DNA from: a virus
Taxonomy: Duplodnaviria; Heunggongvirae; Uroviricota; Caudoviricetes
IMG/VR virus record: IMGVR_UViG_2529293246_000006
Reading direction: 5' to 3' (one strand)
DNA: 35,493 nucleotides
Both the position numbers and the translations under genes were made by a program. How positions within the stretch are numbered: the stretch's first letter is position 1; each line of letters begins with the position of its first letter. The notes beneath the pieces were generated by a model. That model worked only from the letters and a program-made list of their open reading frames with translations, did no database searches and had not been told where the DNA came from. This document shows, one piece after another, positions 3,442-29,081 of this stretch.

Positions 3442-4608
3442 TTAAACTCCTTTGACGACGTCGGCGTTGACCTGCGGGACCCCGATTTCAGCAGCCAGAT
3501 TCATGGCGGCTATCACCAGGTTACTGACGGCCAGCGGATACAGCAGGCTGACCATGCTTTTACGGCTACTACCCAGATTGCTCAGACGGGCGCGGATGGC
3601 TTCCACTGCGCTGGCGTCCATGATGTCGGCCAGCTGCTTACCGGCACGTTGCAGTTTGAACGTCAGAAACTCTTCGAGGCTGTTGTCCAGCGGCAGCAAT
3701 TCAACCAACTCGCAGCGCTGGACGACCTCACGGACTTCCATGTTGCGTTCGGACAGTTTGTCTGCCAGTTCAGGCTGGCCAATCAGCACGATGGACAGCA
3801 GTTTTTTGAAGCCGGACTCCAGTTCGAAGAAGCGTTTAAGGTGCTTCAGCGTCGGAATGGGAAGGCTGTGGGCCTCCTCAATCACCAGAACGTGGCTGAA
3901 ACCCGCCTGACTGCTGTCCTTCAGGACTCGGTGCAACTGGCGGAAGCGGGCGTCCTGGCTGCGTTTGATACTCTCCAGCGGCGCGATGGTGCTGATGATG
4001 GCCTCGGCGATAGCTGCCGCCTTCAGGGTTTTGCCCTTCACGTCGTTGTCTTCCATGGCGATGATGTATGGCTCGATTACAATCACCGGCGCGTTCTCGC
4101 GGTTGACGCGTTCAATCAGGTCGCGGCGCAGCGTGGATTTACCCGCACCGGACTCGCCGATAACCGCCAGAAAGCCACCATGGCGGGCGGTCTGGAACAG
4201 CGCCTCACGCACGTAGCGGATATCCGGCGTGGTGAACACATCGTCCGCGCCCTGCATGGCTTCATCGGCGAACGGATCACGGAAAAGGCCAAACGCTTTT
4301 TTGGTTGCTGGAAATAACACCTGCTTTTTGAGTAACATGTTCTCTTCCTCACTGAGGTTGGTTTTATCGGTAGTACCCGCTGTACGGGGCGTGACAGCGC
4401 CCTGTGCAGCATCAAAACTTTTCACTGTATCAATCCCCTTACTTTCCAGATACAACGCCAGACGCTGGCGTACCTCTTCGGGGCTGGTGCGTGGCCACTC
4501 GTTATGGTTCACAATCTGGGCCAGCGTGGCCTCGGAAACGGCGACGGCTCTTGCCACCACCGCCTGCGGGATGCGGGCCTCTTTCAGTTGTTGCTTCAGT
4601 ACCAGCAT
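3442..4608 (-). CDS. transposition ATPase (MuB-like AAA+ target DNA activator)
   Basis: 388 aa. Walker A GESGAGKST and Walker B VLVIEEAH. Directly downstream of the transposase. Strong GAGGAGG Shine-Dalgarno before the ATG at 4608. Confidence 0.85.
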   Translation of the reverse strand: MLVLKQQLKEARIPQAVVARAVAVSEATLAQIVNHNEWPRTSPEEVRQRLALYLESKGIDTVKSFDAAQGAVTPRTAGTTDKTNLSEEENMLLKKQVLFPATKKAFGLFRDPFADEAMQGADDVFTTPDIRYVREALFQTARHGGFLAVIGESGAGKSTLRRDLIERVNRENAPVIVIEPYIIAMEDNDVKGKTLKAAAIAEAIISTIAPLESIKRSQDARFRQLHRVLKDSSQAGFSHVLVIEEAHSLPIPTLKHLKRFFELESGFKKLLSIVLIGQPELADKLSERNMEVREVVQRCELVELLPLDNSLEEFLTFKLQRAGKQLADIMDASAVEAIRARLSNLGSSRKSMVSLLYPLAVSNLVIAAMNLAAEIGVPQVNADVVKGV

Positions 4609-8951: not shown

Positions 8952-9722
8952 TCAAAAATTACAAATTACCAGCTCTTTCTTCGGGCTGGGTTTGCCTGTT
9001 ACCTTAAGGTTGTAGCTGATATCAACCGACTGCATGTTCAGACCGTTGAATACCTGCCGCATTTCCGGGATATCGTTCACTGATATAATCATCTTCCCTT
9101 TGATCCTTCGCGCTAAATCTGCCATGTGATCATAGTTTTCCAGCCCGAACTCCACACCATAGCCTTCCGTTCCCCAGTACGGTGGGTCACAGTAGAACAG
9201 CGTATGCGGGCGATCATATCGCTCTATGCACTGGTGCCAGTCCAGATGCTCTATCAGCGTTCTCGACAGGCGCAGGTGTGCCATCGACAGTTCTTCCTCA
9301 ATACGCAGCAAATTGAAGCGCGGCGCACTGGTTGTAGAGGTACCGAATGTGTGATCGGCGACCTTGCCGCCAAATGCCTGTTTCTGCAGGTAGTAGAACC
9401 GGGCCGCCCGCTGAATGTCGGTGAGCGTTTCTTCCGGCGTATCCTGCAACCATTTGTAAATCTGACGGCTGACCAGCGCCCATTTGAACTGGCGAATAAA
9501 TTCTTCCAGATGATGCTTGACCACCCGATAGAGGTTCACCAGTTCCCCGTTGATATCGTTAATGACTTCGGTCTTGCTGGGAGTCTTTAGGAAATAGAGC
9601 GCAGCTGCCCCGCAGAACGGCTCCACATAGCAGGTATGGGCCGGAAACAATGGTAAAATATGCTTCGCCAGACGACGTTTACCGCCAATCCATGGGACGA
9701 TGGGTAAAGATTGTTCTTTCAT
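8952..9722 (-). CDS. dam: DNA adenine methyltransferase (Dam-like, N6-adenine D12 class)
   Basis: ORF 8952..9746 trimmed to the ATG at 9722 (MKEQSLPIVPWIGGKRRL...). FCGAA (motif I) and the DPPY catalytic motif (YCDPPYWGTEGYG). Opposite strand to its neighbours. Confidence 0.85.
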   Translation of the reverse strand: MKEQSLPIVPWIGGKRRLAKHILPLFPAHTCYVEPFCGAAALYFLKTPSKTEVINDINGELVNLYRVVKHHLEEFIRQFKWALVSRQIYKWLQDTPEETLTDIQRAARFYYLQKQAFGGKVADHTFGTSTTSAPRFNLLRIEEELSMAHLRLSRTLIEHLDWHQCIERYDRPHTLFYCDPPYWGTEGYGVEFGLENYDHMADLARRIKGKMIISVNDIPEMRQVFNGLNMQSVDISYNLKVTGKPSPKKELVICNF

Positions 9723-9769
9723 TATCCGTAAGCCTTTTGCAATCAATGAAAATATGGCAGGCTAGTCTG

Positions 9770-9781: not shown

Positions 9782-9969
9782 TGACTGAACCCTGGTCGGC
9801 TCACAGTGCATACCTGTGGGTTGATGACCAGCCTGGTGTTACCGCACCGGGCTGGTCGTTCTTTCAAAGCCATCATGCGGTTCACGTCTGCATCCTCACT
9901 ATTAACGCTGTTTAAAATCCCTTTCCCCGACCATTTGTGATGCTGTCTCCACTACACAAGGAGACGCTC

Positions 9970-20715: not shown

Positions 20716-20966
20716 TGAAAGAATACCGCTATTCCGGCCCGGCCAGCGGCGTCACGCTGTCGGACGGAACCGAAATCCTGCTCTGGCCGGGGAAGAATGT
20801 TTCCCTGCCGGAGGAGCATGACTATGTGAAGGTACTGGTGGCGCTGAAGCATCTGACACCGGTATCTGAAGAGACTAAACCCGCCAGCACACCGGTTGTG
20901 CAGTCACCAAAGCGCAGGAACGCCGGCGACAACGATGTGAAAACGGAGGACTCCCATGGCAGCTAA
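20715..20966 (+). CDS. small hypothetical protein preceding tail sheath
   Basis: ATG at 20715 overlaps the upstream stop; 83 aa. Confidence 0.45.
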   Translation: MKEYRYSGPASGVTLSDGTEILLWPGKNVSLPEEHDYVKVLVALKHLTPVSEETKPASTPVVQSPKRRNAGDNDVKTEDSHGS

Positions 20967-22383
20967 CTATCTGCATGGCGTCGAAACCATTGAGGTGGAA
21001 AACGGTGCCCGCCCGGTAAAAACGGTGAAGTCTGCCGTCATTGGCCTGATTGGTACCGCCCCGATGGGGGACGTCAATACGCTGGTGCAGTGCCTGTCTG
21101 AGAAAGATGCAGCGGCGTTTGGCAGCCAGCTCACCGGTTTTACCATTCCGCAGGCGCTGGATGCGATCTACGACCATGGGGCAGGCACCGTTCTGGTCAT
21201 TAACGTGCTTGATCCGGCTGTGCATAAAACCGCTGTGGCCGATGAAGATGTAACGTTCGACAAGGCGACGGGCAAGGCACAGCTGGCTAATCCGGTGGTC
21301 GCGCAGCTGGTACTGAAACCGGACAGCGATGGCCAGCCTTATGTGGAAGGTCAGGACTACTCGCTTGATGCACAGACCGGAGTGATTACCAACCTTGGTA
21401 AGAGCATTGCCGCAGATGCAACGGTGAAGGCCAGCTATAACTATGCTGATCCAACTAAAGTCACCCCGGCTGATATCATCGGTGCCGTTAACGCTGCGGG
21501 CAACCGTACCGGCATGAAGCTGCTTAACGACAGCTTCAACCTGTTTGGCTACTTCGCAAAAATACTGATTGCCCCGGTCTTCTGCACCCAGAACAGCGTC
21601 TCGGTTGAGCTTATCGCCATGGCTGAGAAGCTGGGCGCGGTGACCTACATCGACGCGCCGATTGGTACCACTTTTGCGCAGGCTCTGGCGGGGCGTGGCC
21701 CGGAAGGCACCATTAACTTCAACACCAGCTCCGACCGCGTCCGTCTGTGCTACCCGCACGTCAAGGTGTACGACGCGGCCACCAACAGCGAACGGCTGGA
21801 GCCGCTGAGCCAGCGTGCTGCAGGTCTGCGTGCCAAAGTCGACCTGGACAAGGGCTACTGGTGGTCGTCCTCCAACCAGGAAATTCTGGGTATCACCGGC
21901 GTGGAGCGCCAGCTGTCGGCAATGATTGACGACCCGCAGAGCGAGGTGAACCTGCTCAACGAACAGGGCATCACCACGGTCTTCAGCAGCTACGGCAGCG
22001 GCCTGCGTCTGTGGGGCAACCGTATGGCGGCATGGCCAACGGTCACCCATATGCGCAACTTTGAGAACGTTCGCCGTACCGGTGATGTGATCAACGAGTC
22101 CCTGCGTTACTTCAGCCAGCAGTACATCGACATGCCGATTACCCAGGCGCTGATTGATGCGCTGACGGAGTCGGTCAACGCCTACGGTCGCAAGCTGATT
22201 GGCGACGGTGCGCTGCTGGGCTTCAGCTGCTGGTTTGATCCGGCCCGCAACGAAGAGACGGAGCTTGCCGCCGGTCACCTGTTGCTGAGCTACAAATACA
22301 CGCCACCACCACCGCTGGAGCGACTGACGTTTGAGACCGAGATCACCTCGGAATATCTGTTAACCCTGAAGGGGAATAGCTGA
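20956..22383 (+). CDS. tail sheath protein
   Basis: 475 aa with MAANYLHGVETIEVENG... N-terminus. Followed by the tube and tape-measure genes, the canonical contractile-tail order. Confidence 0.85.
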   Translation: MAANYLHGVETIEVENGARPVKTVKSAVIGLIGTAPMGDVNTLVQCLSEKDAAAFGSQLTGFTIPQALDAIYDHGAGTVLVINVLDPAVHKTAVADEDVTFDKATGKAQLANPVVAQLVLKPDSDGQPYVEGQDYSLDAQTGVITNLGKSIAADATVKASYNYADPTKVTPADIIGAVNAAGNRTGMKLLNDSFNLFGYFAKILIAPVFCTQNSVSVELIAMAEKLGAVTYIDAPIGTTFAQALAGRGPEGTINFNTSSDRVRLCYPHVKVYDAATNSERLEPLSQRAAGLRAKVDLDKGYWWSSSNQEILGITGVERQLSAMIDDPQSEVNLLNEQGITTVFSSYGSGLRLWGNRMAAWPTVTHMRNFENVRRTGDVINESLRYFSQQYIDMPITQALIDALTESVNAYGRKLIGDGALLGFSCWFDPARNEETELAAGHLLLSYKYTPPPPLERLTFETEITSEYLLTLKGNS

Positions 22384-22904
22384 TGGCAAAGATTGAGATC
22401 AACCGCATCACGAATGCCAACATCTACCTGGATGGCGCTAACCTGCTGGGCCGGGCCGAGGAGGTCAAACTCCCGGACGTCTCCATGACCATGCAGGAGC
22501 ATAAGGCGCTGGGGATGGTGGGCAAAGTGGAACTCCCGGCAGGCTTCGACAAGCTGGAGGGTGAGATCAAGTGGAACAGCTTTTACCGCGACGCGATGCT
22601 GTCTGCTGCGAACCCGTATAAGTCGCTGGCGCTGCAGTGCCGTTCCAGCGTCCAGCGCTACAGTTCGCAGGGGCTGATTGACGAAATCCCGCTGGTCACA
22701 TTCCTGACGATCATGTTCAAGAAGAACCCGCTGGGGACGTTCAAACAGCACGAGAACGCCGAGTTCTCTAGCAGCTTCACCTGCACGTACATCAAGCAGG
22801 TACTGGATGGTGAAGAGCTGCTGGAGCTGGACTATCTGGCCAACATCTTCCGAGTCGGCGGCGTTGACCAGTTGACTGACTACCGCATCAATATCGGGGG
22901 CTGA
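22383..22904 (+). CDS. tail tube protein
   Basis: 173 aa; ATGA overlap with the sheath stop. Confidence 0.8.
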   Translation: MAKIEINRITNANIYLDGANLLGRAEEVKLPDVSMTMQEHKALGMVGKVELPAGFDKLEGEIKWNSFYRDAMLSAANPYKSLALQCRSSVQRYSSQGLIDEIPLVTFLTIMFKKNPLGTFKQHENAEFSSSFTCTYIKQVLDGEELLELDYLANIFRVGGVDQLTDYRINIGG

Positions 22905-22906
22905 CG

Positions 22907-23188
22907 GTGACCGTCGAGATTGAAGATAAAGGCGGGAACTGTGGTTCGATTGGCATGGGAAATGGTACGTGGTTTACCATCCTTGATATTCCGGGGGTGG
23001 AAAACCTTTTTAATACCCAGAAAACCAATGACCCGATTGACTGCACCCGCTCTAAAGCACGGAAGCTCGCTGACCTGATTGAGGCATGGGAGCCACCTGA
23101 CCACTGGTTCACCGGCATCGGCAAATCTGAAGGAAAGGCGCTTCTTATCGCCTTCCTGCGTAACTGCAAAGGCTTTCGCACTCACTGA
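22907..23188 (+). CDS. hypothetical protein, moron inserted between tail tube and tail chaperone genes
   Basis: 93-aa ORF from the GTG at 22907 (GGGGG Shine-Dalgarno 7 nt upstream); an alternative ATG at 22955 gives 77 aa. Followed by its own intrinsic terminator. No recognisable motif. Confidence 0.4.
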   Translation: MTVEIEDKGGNCGSIGMGNGTWFTILDIPGVENLFNTQKTNDPIDCTRSKARKLADLIEAWEPPDHWFTGIGKSEGKALLIAFLRNCKGFRTH

Positions 23189-23194
23189 TATCAC

Positions 23195-23218
23195 AGGGGC
23201 TTCGGCCCCTTTCTTCTT
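23195..23218 (+). terminator. rho-independent terminator after the moron
   Basis: AGGGGC-TTCG-GCCCCT hairpin (23195-23210) followed by TTCTTCTT. Confidence 0.6.
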
Positions 23219-23286
23219 AATCCCCTTTAATATCCGTCACGTCCACCTCCAGACATACTGCTCTGAACTTACACAGGAGCACGATC

Positions 23287-23601
23287 ATGTCACAGACCCA
23301 ATCCGATACTTTTAAGCTGTCTTACCCCTTCACCACCGCAGCAGGCACCAGAGTTGAGCAGGTTGAACTGAAACGCCTGACGGTCAAAGACCTGAAGCAG
23401 GTGCGCAAAATCAGTAAAGACCCGGCTGACTGGGACGAACCGCTCATTGCCCGTAGCACCGGTATTCTCCCCGAAGACCTCGATAACATGGATCTTGCCG
23501 ATTACATGGAGCTGCAGAAACGATTTCAGCAAGTCACTGGGCTGGGCAAGAGCGACGAAAACGCTGATGCAGGCGCAGGGGCTGCTGGCGAGGTGGTTTA
23601 G
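23287..23601 (+). CDS. tail assembly chaperone (P2 E / Mu gp41-like)
   Basis: 104 aa with an AGGAG Shine-Dalgarno, between the tube and tape-measure genes. An overlapping downstream ORF sits in another frame. Confidence 0.6.
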   Translation: MSQTQSDTFKLSYPFTTAAGTRVEQVELKRLTVKDLKQVRKISKDPADWDEPLIARSTGILPEDLDNMDLADYMELQKRFQQVTGLGKSDENADAGAGAAGEVV

Positions 23602-23704
23602 ATTTCAGCCGGGGGAGATTGATGCCCTCGATACTGACGATCTGGAGATGTGGCTGGAGCAGGCTGAAGAGCAAATCAAAAGCGAGTTCGGCGACAATCA
23701 GTAA
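23447..23704 (+). other. +1-frame overlapping ORF: probable frameshift extension of the tail chaperone
   Basis: ORF in the +1 frame overlaps the 3' part of the chaperone gene and runs 103 nt beyond its TAG (23599-23601), ending ...EIDALDTDDLEMWLEQAEEQIKSEFGDNQ. The -1 frame hits a stop quickly. Slip site not identified. Confidence 0.45.
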
Positions 23705-23796
23705 CGACTCATCACTTAACAGCCGCCCCTCGCGGCTGTTCTGCATGGCTCTCAGACATTTTCCTTCCGTTTTTCCGCTTTCAGAGGATAACAACC

Positions 23797-26262
23797 GTGG
23801 CCAGTGAATTTTCAGTCGGCGTCATTATTGGCGGCATTGTCGGAAGCAGCTTCCGCTCAGCCGTCAGTGGCACCCGACGCGCCCTAGATTCCCTGGGCGA
23901 TACATCGCGCCGCCTGCAGGAACGCCAGAATGCCTTAACTCGTGCAACTGAACGTTATGGCCAGTTAGGCTCTTCCCGGATGCAGCGCCTCAACAGCGAA
24001 CTGCTGCGGGTAAGCCGCACAATGGAGCAAATTGAACGCCAGCAGCGCCGTCTGTCAGCAGTATCAGCCACCAGTGACGCGCTGAAAGCTAACCGCATGG
24101 CGCTCTATGGCCAGGGAGCAGAGACTTATGGTATCGCCCGAACGCTGGGCGCACCGGTCATGGCCTCTGTCAAACAATATTCATCGTTTGAATCCCAGCT
24201 ACGCGATATCAGTGTCACCGGTGATCTGGATTCAAGGCAGGAACAGGCCATCGGTACTGCCATTCGTCGGGCATCCCTGCAGGTCAATCAGCTCCAGGAA
24301 TCTCTGTTGAGCGGCGTTGGTCAACTGGTTGCCGATGGCATGAATCCGCAGCAGGCAGCGACCTTTGCCGGGATGCTCGGTAAAGCGGCCACGGCCACCA
24401 AAGCAGATATGACTGACCTCGCAAAAATGACCTATGCCTTTAGCGATGCGCTGAAAATTACCGATGCCAAAGAGCTGGAGCAGGCGTTTGGGATTGCGGC
24501 AACCGGGGCCAAGCTAGGCTCGTTTGAGCTGAAGGATATGGCGAAAGCGTTACCCGGTATGGCCAAAGCCTTCGCTGCACGTGGTATTTACGGCAAAGAC
24601 GCCATAACCCAGATCGTAGCCAGTCTGGAAGTGGGTAAAGGCAGCGGCTCAGCGGAAGAGGCCGTCACCAATATGTCAAACTGGCTGGCGGCAATGGGAC
24701 GCGGAGATACCACGCAGAAATACGCTAAGGCTGGCGTGGATTACCAGGGATCAATGCAAAATTATGTAGCCCAGGGGTTCTCTCAATATGAAGCCTCCCT
24801 GATGATTGCCAACCGGTTTATCGACGGTAAAGGCAAGGCATTTGTGCAGCAATGGAAGGCGGCAGGCTCAAGAGGCGATCAGGAAGGCCAGCAGAGGCTG
24901 ATGGAGTCCTTCGGACTGGCGGAAGTCTTTACCGATATCCAGACCGTGAACCATCTACTGTCTATGCGTCAGGGCTGGGATAAGTACCAATCTAACAAGC
25001 AGGAAATGAACACTCCCTCTGCAATGTCTACGCTGGACAAGGATGCAGCGAAACAAAATGATACGCTCGAAGGACGTTGGCGCAGAACGCAGATTGGGTT
25101 TAACGACTCGGCCATTAGCATCGGAGAATCATTACGTCCGGCGTTGATCCAGCTGGGGGAAACATTCATCCCCTTAATGAACAGCGTTGGAAAATGGATT
25201 GCGGCTAATCCGCAACTCGTGAGCGGCACAATTCAAGTGATTGGCGCATTACTTGCGTTCAAGATGGCAACCATCGGCCTCAAGCTCGGGCTGAATCTCC
25301 TTATTTCACCTTTCGTCAACGTCTGGAAAAATGCCGTGCTCCTGCGGGCCAACTGGCTTCGCCTGACACTCGCGCTGGGTGAAGGCGGCAAACTTCGCTG
25401 GCTGGTGACCGGCTTCAGCGCCGTCGCCAGAGGAGCCAGAACACTGGGTGGTGTGCTGTCAGGTGGGCTGGTTCGCGGCATTATGATCGCCGGGCGTGCC
25501 GTTCTCTGGATTGGGCGGGCATTGCTGATGAATCCCATTGGTCTTGCTATCACCGCCGTCGCGGCGGCGGCTTATCTTATTTATCGTAACTGGGGGGCTG
25601 TCAGCAGTTGGTTCAAACAGCGCTGGGCTGACATTAAAGAGGCTTTTAACGGCGGTATCGTGGGGATTGGTAAACTGCTGATTAACTGGTCGCCGGTTGG
25701 TCTGCTCTATAAAGCCTTTGCGGCTGCGCTGAAATATCTCGGCGTTGATCTGCCCGCGAAGTTCACTGACTTCGGTGGCCATCTTATCGACGGGCTGATA
25801 AACGGCATCAAAAACAAATGGGAGTCGCTCAAAACCACCGTCACAGATATGGGTGACAGTGTCGGCGGCTGGTTCAAGGAAAAGCTGGGTATCCATTCGC
25901 CGAGCCGCGTGTTTATGGGCTTTGGTGACAACATCGCGCAGGGTGCCGCTATCGGCCTGCAGCGTACCACACCACTGGCAGCGCTCGCCGGACAACGCCT
26001 GGCAACAGAGATGACTCCCGATGTTCCCCGTATCCCGTCGCCGGAAATCATGGCTGCGGGATATTCAGGTCGTGGCGCAGTTGCAACTGGCGGCGGAACA
26101 TCTGGCGGTATCCAGGTCAGCTTTAATCCTCAGTTTTTCCTCAATGGCAAAGAAACCGCAGCGCCTGCCGGACTGACCGGCGCACTGAATATGAGCCTGC
26201 ATGAACTGGAGAAAATGCTGGAGCGTCTGCTGGCTCAGAAACAACGTCGGGGGTACGAATAA
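23797..26262 (+). CDS. tail tape measure protein
   Basis: 821 aa. Largely alpha-helical N-terminal two thirds, hydrophobic segments and a Gly-rich C-terminus. GTG start after an AGAGGA Shine-Dalgarno. Confidence 0.85.
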   Translation: MASEFSVGVIIGGIVGSSFRSAVSGTRRALDSLGDTSRRLQERQNALTRATERYGQLGSSRMQRLNSELLRVSRTMEQIERQQRRLSAVSATSDALKANRMALYGQGAETYGIARTLGAPVMASVKQYSSFESQLRDISVTGDLDSRQEQAIGTAIRRASLQVNQLQESLLSGVGQLVADGMNPQQAATFAGMLGKAATATKADMTDLAKMTYAFSDALKITDAKELEQAFGIAATGAKLGSFELKDMAKALPGMAKAFAARGIYGKDAITQIVASLEVGKGSGSAEEAVTNMSNWLAAMGRGDTTQKYAKAGVDYQGSMQNYVAQGFSQYEASLMIANRFIDGKGKAFVQQWKAAGSRGDQEGQQRLMESFGLAEVFTDIQTVNHLLSMRQGWDKYQSNKQEMNTPSAMSTLDKDAAKQNDTLEGRWRRTQIGFNDSAISIGESLRPALIQLGETFIPLMNSVGKWIAANPQLVSGTIQVIGALLAFKMATIGLKLGLNLLISPFVNVWKNAVLLRANWLRLTLALGEGGKLRWLVTGFSAVARGARTLGGVLSGGLVRGIMIAGRAVLWIGRALLMNPIGLAITAVAAAAYLIYRNWGAVSSWFKQRWADIKEAFNGGIVGIGKLLINWSPVGLLYKAFAAALKYLGVDLPAKFTDFGGHLIDGLINGIKNKWESLKTTVTDMGDSVGGWFKEKLGIHSPSRVFMGFGDNIAQGAAIGLQRTTPLAALAGQRLATEMTPDVPRIPSPEIMAAGYSGRGAVATGGGTSGGIQVSFNPQFFLNGKETAAPAGLTGALNMSLHELEKMLERLLAQKQRRGYE

Positions 26263-29027: not shown

Positions 29028-29081
29028 CCTTCTTAAACGCCTTTAATATCGGCGTTCCCGCACAGGGGCAATACTGCCCCC

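Follow-up and report, generated by a model that had tools for sequence, protein, structure and literature searches.

A DUF7739-family gene as optional cargo in a slot between the tail tube gene and a terminator-like hairpin of BcepMu-like transposable phages

The subject of this analysis is ORF93, an open reading frame (ORF) of 93 codons located between the tail tube and tail assembly chaperone genes in a 35,493-nucleotide stretch of Caudoviricetes DNA (IMG/VR record IMGVR_UViG_2529293246_000006), the whole of which is referred to below as the window. ORF93 is a divergent member of the DUF7739 (PHROG 1239) family, as judged by profile and sequence comparisons, and is a genuine gene under selection, horizontally mobile and accessory. 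Comparison with related genomes indicates that it is optional cargo, and not a tail component, in a slot of a few dozen bases that extends from the tube stop codon to a resident terminator in BcepMu-like transposable phages. The explanation that we favor overall, with a probability of roughly 0.45, is that ORF93 is a mobile cargo gene at the end of a late operon, expressed in the lytic cycle and encoding a small binding protein. In kind, the gene itself is ordinary, being a small accessory gene in a phage variable slot and already catalogued as a DUF; the cargo hotspot at the tube-chaperone junction is newly delineated.

The tube gene (22383..22904, + strand; 173 amino acids; TGA stop codon at 22902-22904) is present in the ORF list and matches the Phage_tube family (PF04985, E 1.1e-54). 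ORF93 (22907..23188, + strand) begins with a GTG codon 2 nucleotides past this stop, and a Shine-Dalgarno-like GGGGG run is read in the sequence 6 nucleotides upstream of the GTG, within the end of the tube gene (22896..22900, + strand). All these features are as described in the initial annotation, which had also found no recognizable motif in the protein; that statement does not survive comparison with protein families. ORF93 matches the PHROG 1239 profile with an E-value of 1.5e-45, its residues 1-93 covering profile positions 1-96 of 96. The match to Pfam DUF7739 (PF24881) scores 18.7 bits, under the gathering threshold of 27. A Pfam scan retaining weak hits assigned 19 of 20 aligned family members to PF24881 (best E 6e-21), and the Sf6 gene 22 protein and its relatives, which exceed the Pfam threshold, are 41-54% identical to ORF93 in alignments that span the full length. 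The family alignment (A1) contains 16 invariant and 14 nearly invariant columns, including those of the motifs N-x-T-W-F and C-x-G-F-R. When 1.84 billion cluster representatives were searched exhaustively with a profile, no more than 82 members of the family came to light, nearly all of them stand-alone proteins of 86-100 amino acids. A 132-residue protein from an E. coli plasmid record, annotated as 'phage major tail tube protein' (P0035), consists of the C-terminal part of the tube protein (PF04985) and the first ~55 residues of ORF93; this fusion of two adjacent genes is probably a frameshift or sequencing artefact.

Family members retain the N-terminus of ORF93 as read from the GTG, and one of the loci surveyed below (L011) has ATG as the corresponding start codon. 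Against 46 distinct relatives, the pairwise ratio of nonsynonymous to synonymous substitution rates (dN/dS) is 0.03-0.17 wherever dS is measurable; the tube gives 0-0.05 and the chaperone 0.1-0.3, so that ORF93 is near the chaperone and under looser constraint than the tube. Two antisense ORFs, 22880-23194 and 22888-23181, were rejected as shadow frames, because homology and selection both reside in the + frame. The GC content at third codon positions is 0.57 in ORF93, 0.82 in the tube gene and 0.71 in the sheath gene, a base composition that marks ORF93 as foreign. The predicted protein is soluble, with a mass of 10.3 kDa, an isoelectric point (pI) of 6.1, and 12 acidic and 11 basic residues; the pI in the family ranges from 5.7 to 9.3, most members being basic (7.6-9.3). 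ORF93 is carried by 640 of 5,426 complete E. coli genomes, where every copy is annotated as a hypothetical protein. These observations bear on the possibility that ORF93 is useless to the phage, a hitch-hiking or selfish ORF kept at the end of an operon, where its position is harmless. The repeated loss and decay of the gene described below and the variety of inserts accepted by the slot would both fit such a passenger. They have to be set against a dN/dS of about 0.1 over dS values of up to about 1, the 16 columns that are invariant across branches of only ~40% identity, and retention in the 640 E. coli genomes, which together make a useless passenger highly improbable.

The tube-chaperone junction was then compared in 74 loci, one genome per species, fetched via the tube protein; in each of them the tube, ORF93, chaperone and tape measure genes were located, and 69 loci (L-numbers below) contained both tube and chaperone. 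In 32 of the 69, including Erwinia tracheiphila, Xenorhabdus, Brenneria and several Pectobacterium, the junction is empty (gap of at most 215 bp). Intact ORF93 is the sole cargo in ten loci. It follows a Phage_gp49_66 ORF in four more, one of which also contains an insertion sequence element. Decayed copies account for a further seven: a copy with a stop codon at W61 in Mixta (L015), a frameshifted copy behind a Phage_gp49_66 ORF in Apirhabdus (L022), and a 5'-truncated remnant of 56 codons in five Photorhabdus species (L028-L031 and L034). BcepMu itself passes from tube to chaperone through a spacer of 103-121 bp with no ORF, and ORF93 is also absent from a Salmonella STM4212-type prophage and Pseudomonas phage Bise. 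The initial annotation had proposed that contractile-tail operons run from tube to chaperone without a gap, which is not the case in this lineage, where a spacing of ~110-150 bp is usual. It had also set the comparison of this junction among relatives as a check; the outcome is variable presence, the ORF not being conserved at the position in all relatives. The proposal that ORF93 is an accessory gene rather than a tail part is thus upheld by its absence from BcepMu and from 32 of the 69 junctions, by the decayed copies, and by homologues in early-left operons.

The empty junction of the E. tracheiphila prophage (L020, 3519-3560) contains CTGATACCAC 12 nucleotides past the tube stop, which resembles the last bases of ORF93 with their flank (CACTGATATCAC, window 23180-23195). 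For this reason the site may be a deletion derivative rather than one that was never occupied.

The alternative that the survey addresses most directly is that ORF93 is a lineage-specific tail accessory, either a minor component or assembly factor of the tail, or a late protector of the phage's own tube or sheath against host systems that sense tails or block their assembly, in analogy to the anti-Tai protein AtiEcA of phi80. In its favor, the gene shares a late operon with the tube gene, to which its translation is coupled, and is under purifying selection, E. coli junctions of this prophage type contain it in 640 of 643 genomes, and a late counter-defence protein that rescues tail assembly has a precedent (PMC11364771). 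Its distribution speaks against this role. ORF93 is missing from relatives in Erwinia, Xenorhabdus, Pectobacterium and Brenneria whose tubes are 92-98% identical to that of the window (98% in the E. tracheiphila prophage), and the copies in Mixta, Apirhabdus and Photorhabdus are pseudogenes or truncated. Podoviruses such as Sf6 and CUS-3, whose tails are not contractile, have homologues as early genes, and a further homologue lies in an integrative conjugative element (ICE); no tail family was matched in Pfam or PHROGs. A tail component in the strict sense was rejected on this distribution, with 32 of 69 junctions empty and homologues outside tail modules, and we regard the wider tail-accessory role as improbable.

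ORF93 shares the slot with other cargo. A 66-residue ORF (PHROG 9518) occupies four of the 69 junctions, and six others, all from Pectobacterium, contain a cysteine-less ferredoxin-like ORF. The latter (~3540-3872 in L048, L050, L052 and L055-L057) encodes 109-110 amino acids resembling plant-type ferredoxins (PF00111, E 2e-4; PHROG 844 'ferredoxin', E 1e-23), and the cysteines that would bind the cluster seem to have been replaced (SRAGADPSSAAR); the L048 copy has a hairpin on each side. Four Lonsdalea junctions (L042-L046, ~3522-3930) contain a GC-rich insert of 356-411 bp, which looks non-coding, a repeat or structured element, since its ORFs are rich in Arg and Pro and inconsistent between strains. 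The remaining two junctions carry a pair of CdiA-CT RNase A toxin and CdiI_2 immunity genes in Neisseriaceae bacterium TC5R-5 (L066, 3596-4843), which lies 3' of the hairpin, and, in Chromobacterium sphagni (L064, 773-2904), a module of 2.2 kb on the opposite strand that contains a gene for a PAAR protein and three additional ORFs. Interbacterial-toxin cargo is therefore found within a phage tail operon.

Downstream of ORF93 the window contains the hairpin AGGGGC-TTCG-GCCCCT (23195-23210) followed by the T-run TTCTTCTT, the whole feature covering 23195..23218 on the + strand, where the initial annotation had placed it. Its stem of 6 bp includes five G-C pairs and is closed by a UUCG loop, the tail is UUCUUCUU, and the predicted energy is -11.8 kcal/mol (z -2.0). 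Taken alone it is weak evidence for a terminator, and a scan of the window with a terminator consensus found seven sites with 5.6 expected from shuffled sequences. We accept the hairpin as real because a hairpin with a T-run is kept at the junction in nearly all relatives, 20-55 nucleotides past the tube stop when the junction is empty and directly 3' of the cargo at most filled ones. An identical AGGGGC-TTCG-GCCCCT is present at empty Pectobacterium and Samsonia junctions, and the hairpins of L049, L053 and L058 are identical to it. The BcepMu junction has GGCCCGC-TTCG-GCGGGCC-TTTTTT, and other stems at the same place are GCCCAC/GTGGGC in a Ralstonia phage, AGGGAGAGA/TCTCTCCCT in Brenneria, and AAGGAGGGG/TCCCTCCTT. 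The stems differ by genus at one place, and hence the structure is conserved while its sequence changes. The empty Erwinia junction, ...GGGGCCTGGTGGCCCC TTGC TTCTTAATCCCCTTTAATATCCGTCA..CATACTGCTCTGAACTTACATAGGAGCAC.ATCATG, reproduces the window 3' of ORF93 nearly base for base, including the retained TTCTTAATCCCCTTTAATATCCGTCA...CATACTGCTCTGAACTTACA. It follows that ORF93 was inserted, or in other cases lost, at a place bounded by the tube stop and the resident terminator. The hairpin is thus not the gene's own terminator, as had been thought, the same or an equivalent hairpin and T-run being present where ORF93 is not; judged from sequence conservation, it is a putative resident intrinsic terminator of the phage backbone that would end the first late operon.

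Between the hairpin and the chaperone gene lies a promoter-like element. The repeated late-promoter-like motif noticed here by the initial annotation does exist: there are exactly two copies of TTCTTAA-N3-CCTTTAATATC in the window, with 0.02 expected. The motif forms part of an extended element, TTAA-N6-TTAA(T/A)A-N~21-(C/A/G)AT(A/G)CTG, found three times in the window, always on the + strand (0.01 expected). The junction copy, TTAA-N6-TTAATAT-N20-CATACTGC, covers 23217..23261; a second copy (9902..9946) is located just 5' of the holin (PF13272) and lysis genes, and a third (29033..29077) between the genes for the gpV-like spike (PF04717) and the gp25/W-like baseplate protein (PF04965). The core columns of the element are invariant in an alignment of 12 sequences (A2) from empty and filled junctions of seven genera, which marks the junction copy, like the hairpin, as resident. 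The element has a -10-like hexamer and no -35. Mu late promoters are C-dependent, and by analogy the element is probably an activator-dependent late promoter. The three copies probably define three late operons, with ORF93 as the last gene of the first one (lysis-head-sheath-tube), given that hairpin and promoter-like element are both present at empty junctions too. The -10-like box of the copy at 29033 ends only 6 nucleotides before the annotated ATG, and for this reason the mRNA from that element may be leaderless, or the start codon miscalled.

Outside the BcepMu-like phages, the family occurs in early-left operons of temperate lambdoid and P22-like phages, where the gene lies between erf/ssb/recT/rdgC/abc2 and xis/int. 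Examples are Sf6 gene 22, HK75, CUS-3, Edwardsiella phage EPP-1, an Enterobacter phage and several prophage contigs, some of them metagenomic. One member adjoins a resolvase in a Xenorhabdus ICE, and the family is also present in three phages of ~92-95 kb. Among the latter, Yersinia phage fHe-Yen8-01 encodes the homologue gp123 (PHROG 1239, E 1e-24), annotated as 'particle associated protein', a label that several adjoining genes also bear. Because the podoviruses lack a contractile tail, the family cannot have a function that is peculiar to tube or sheath. PHROG scans of the neighbors of family members in Sf6, EPP-1 and fHe-Yen8-01 returned nearly only families of unknown function and provided no guilt by association.

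The company of the lambdoid members raises the possibility that ORF93 is a nucleic-acid or recombination accessory, a binder of DNA, RNA or recombination and repair enzymes (for instance a nuclease modulator) that aids phage DNA metabolism. The location among erf, ssb, recT, rdgC and abc2, the basic pI of most family members, and the fact that the top fold match, DMP12, targets the DNA-binding protein HU (PMC3643605) are all consistent with it. It is weakened by the lack of any match to a known DNA-binding motif or family, by the near-neutral pI of the window protein, and by the end of a structural operon being an odd place for such a factor; the early-left co-location is itself a weak argument, as that operon is a general accessory region. 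On balance, we consider a role in DNA metabolism unlikely.

Under the explanation favored here, ORF93 would share its transcript with the abundant sheath and tube, be translated by coupling, and be made in the lytic cycle only. Lytic-only expression is inferred from the position of the gene 5' of the terminator, the GTG 2 nucleotides past the tube stop, the Shine-Dalgarno-like run and the lack of its own promoter; a scan of the tube gene and its junction with ORF93 (22383-22907) for sigma-70-like sites, the only type it covers, found none. Transcription of the chaperone, the tape measure and the genes beyond would start anew at the promoter-like element 3' of the terminator, and the slot would tolerate insertions, because nothing downstream needs read-through. 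The 10-kDa product would act in the cytoplasm during lytic growth, where it would bind or inhibit a host protein or a defence protein stoichiometrically, and might also travel in the virion. A small binder or inhibitor is the most economical reading, since all family contexts are lytic-cycle operons of mobile elements rich in host-takeover genes. That ORF93 acts as such a host-takeover or counter-defence protein, and is not a tail building block, is our prediction for its function, made with somewhat less than even confidence. Delivery with the particle would fit the fHe-Yen8-01 virion annotation and late high-level expression, but this is speculation.

The same features bear on the idea that ORF93 benefits the lysogen and is expressed from the prophage, as an orphan immunity protein against a polymorphic toxin, a superinfection exclusion factor or a defence gene. 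Against this, no promoter is detectable, the start lies 2 nucleotides from the tube stop, and the other contexts of the family are all lytic-cycle operons that are repressed in lysogens. No toxin gene was found beside ORF93 in the window or beside a family member in any context examined, and PADLOC gave no match at E-values up to 1 for ORF93, Sf6 gp22 or P0089. A benefit to the lysogen therefore seems hardly more probable than a tail role.

The AlphaFold2 model of ORF93 is predicted with a mean local confidence (pLDDT) of 86 and a global score (pTM) of 0.77, and the modeled fold weakly resembles the small protein-binding inhibitors DMP12 and CdiI. Foldseek searches of PDB and BFVD returned nothing significant, the viral matches being all uncharacterized, and a profile search with A1 against PDB sequences gave chance-level matches only. 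The remote-homology and structure search proposed in the initial annotation has thus yielded a family, DUF7739/PHROG 1239, and no significant structural match. A weak-hit Pfam scan of 20 family members for recurrent immunity or DMP12-like families recovered DUF7739 only, and an Rfam scan of the whole window matched no family.

Several points weigh against the favored explanation. The PADLOC result just mentioned is one of them; in addition, ORF93 has no match in NCBIfam, and the peptide motifs of the family do not occur in the supplements of two phage accessory-gene screens. The gene belongs to an early operon in lambdoid phages and to a late one here, and a single mechanism must reconcile the two timings. 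Near-fixation at the E. coli junctions (640/643) and coupling to the tube gene would equally fit a tail-related role specific to the lineage. What is said here of transcription, termination and promoter activity is inferred from sequence only, and the virion lead derives from one GenBank annotation, that of fHe-Yen8-01, which could not be traced to any paper. The literature searched contained no mention of DUF7739 or fHe-Yen8-01, publications on Sf6 gene 22 and BcepMu contained nothing on ORF93 or the tube-chaperone junction, and the prophages in the transcriptome paper on strain LF82 do not include a BcepMu-like one.

The interest of ORF93 rests on its prevalence in E. coli, on the shift from an early to a late operon between phage types, and on the cargo hotspot. 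About one in eight complete E. coli genomes carries the gene, and selected optional cargo in a defined slot is a tractable target. The slot, which holds a toxin/immunity pair, a PAAR protein, ferredoxin-like ORFs or DUF7739 genes according to genus, could be mined for genes of phage-host conflict. Should the counter-defence role of DUF7739 prove true, it would add a counter-defence family common to lambdoid, P22-like and BcepMu-like phages, a large Yersinia phage and an ICE. The broadest form of the proposal, in which DUF7739 is an undescribed family of counter-defence or host-takeover inhibitors, expressed early in lambdoid phages, late and abundantly in BcepMu-like phages and perhaps loaded into virions, with the junction as a hotspot of conflict cargo, is put forward tentatively and is at present doubtful.

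Scans for protein families characterize the window as a BcepMu-like transposable phage or prophage with a P2-type contractile tail. It also encodes an rve-type transposase, an AAA protein, a helix-turn-helix (HTH) repressor, a Dam methylase, a holin, an SLT-domain protein, a terminase and a capsid protein. Around ORF93 the sequence agrees with 'Klebsiella phage KP12' at 99.9% identity; for Phi06_2974 B the figure is 96%, and for E. coli phage PhiKM it is 88%. The record OM835952, 'Klebsiella phage KP12 clone KP12_2' (taxonomy Vequintavirinae), and the survey locus L021 (NZ_PJIO01000028.1, 'Arthrobacter sp. GMC3', an 8.2-kb contig with ~7x coverage) both contain enterobacterial BcepMu-like phage sequence that does not match the label, probably as a result of contamination or of a co-purified prophage filed under another organism or phage name. 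Upstream of the tube gene is the tail sheath gene (20956-22383). The tail assembly chaperone (23287-23601; 104 amino acids; PF10109, E 7e-23), on the + strand, is extended to 23287..23704 by an overlapping downstream frame, a GpE-family protein according to RefSeq annotation. Between the end of this frame and the tape measure gene (23797-26262) is a perfect 9-bp hairpin, AACAGCCGC / GCGGCTGTT, with a loop of 5 nucleotides (23718-23740) and no clear T-run, which may be an element of RNA stability or attenuation. A gene for a D12-class N6-adenine DNA methyltransferase (PF02086, E 1e-27) is located on the opposite strand at 8952-9746, just 5' of the first late-promoter-like element of the window.

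Among known systems, ORF93 is closest to its own family. It shares with the Sf6 gene 22 protein full-length homology, the N-x-T-W-F and C-x-G-F-R motifs and a length of ~93-99 residues, and differs in its location in the late tail operon of a transposable myovirus, the other members being found in early-left operons of lambdoid and P22-like phages. The moron, as defined by Juhala and Hendrix, is said to be an autonomous unit of promoter, gene and terminator that is expressed from the prophage. As in lambdoid morons, ORF93 is an extra gene between conserved structural genes, present or absent in relatives and of atypical composition; unlike them, it has no detected promoter, and the terminator is the phage's own. 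The moron layout initially proposed therefore stands as regards an optional gene of atypical composition and falls as regards its own promoter and terminator, and a classic moron was rejected on account of the resident terminator and the lack of a visible promoter.

Anti-CRISPR (Acr) loci were reportedly found by Bondy-Denomy et al. in 2013 in the late structural region of Mu-like Pseudomonas phages. Such loci have their own promoter and an aca gene for an HTH regulator. The likeness to ORF93 consists in a transposable phage with a slot among structural genes that receives interchangeable small accessory proteins; the ORF93 site differs in having neither its own promoter nor aca, and there is no relationship in sequence and none demonstrated in function.

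The two proteins that the modeled fold weakly resembles, DMP12 (PDB 3w1o) and CdiI E479 (PDB 5j4a), have 8-9% identity to ORF93, and the Foldseek matches are not significant. DMP12 is a DNA-mimic inhibitor of HU from Neisseria that relies on rows of Asp and Glu (PMC3643605). A DNA mimic was rejected on charge, ORF93 not being acidic (pI 6.1; family 5.7-9.3). In contrast to CdiI, ORF93 has no adjoining toxin gene. AtiEcA, the anti-Tai protein of phi80, is a small phage protein produced during lytic growth that works by attaching to a protein partner, its gene lying beside the cognate tai gene before the packaging module (PMC11364771). It is a precedent for counter-defence that is expressed late. 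ORF93 is instead part of the tail operon, and no relationship to AtiEcA was found.
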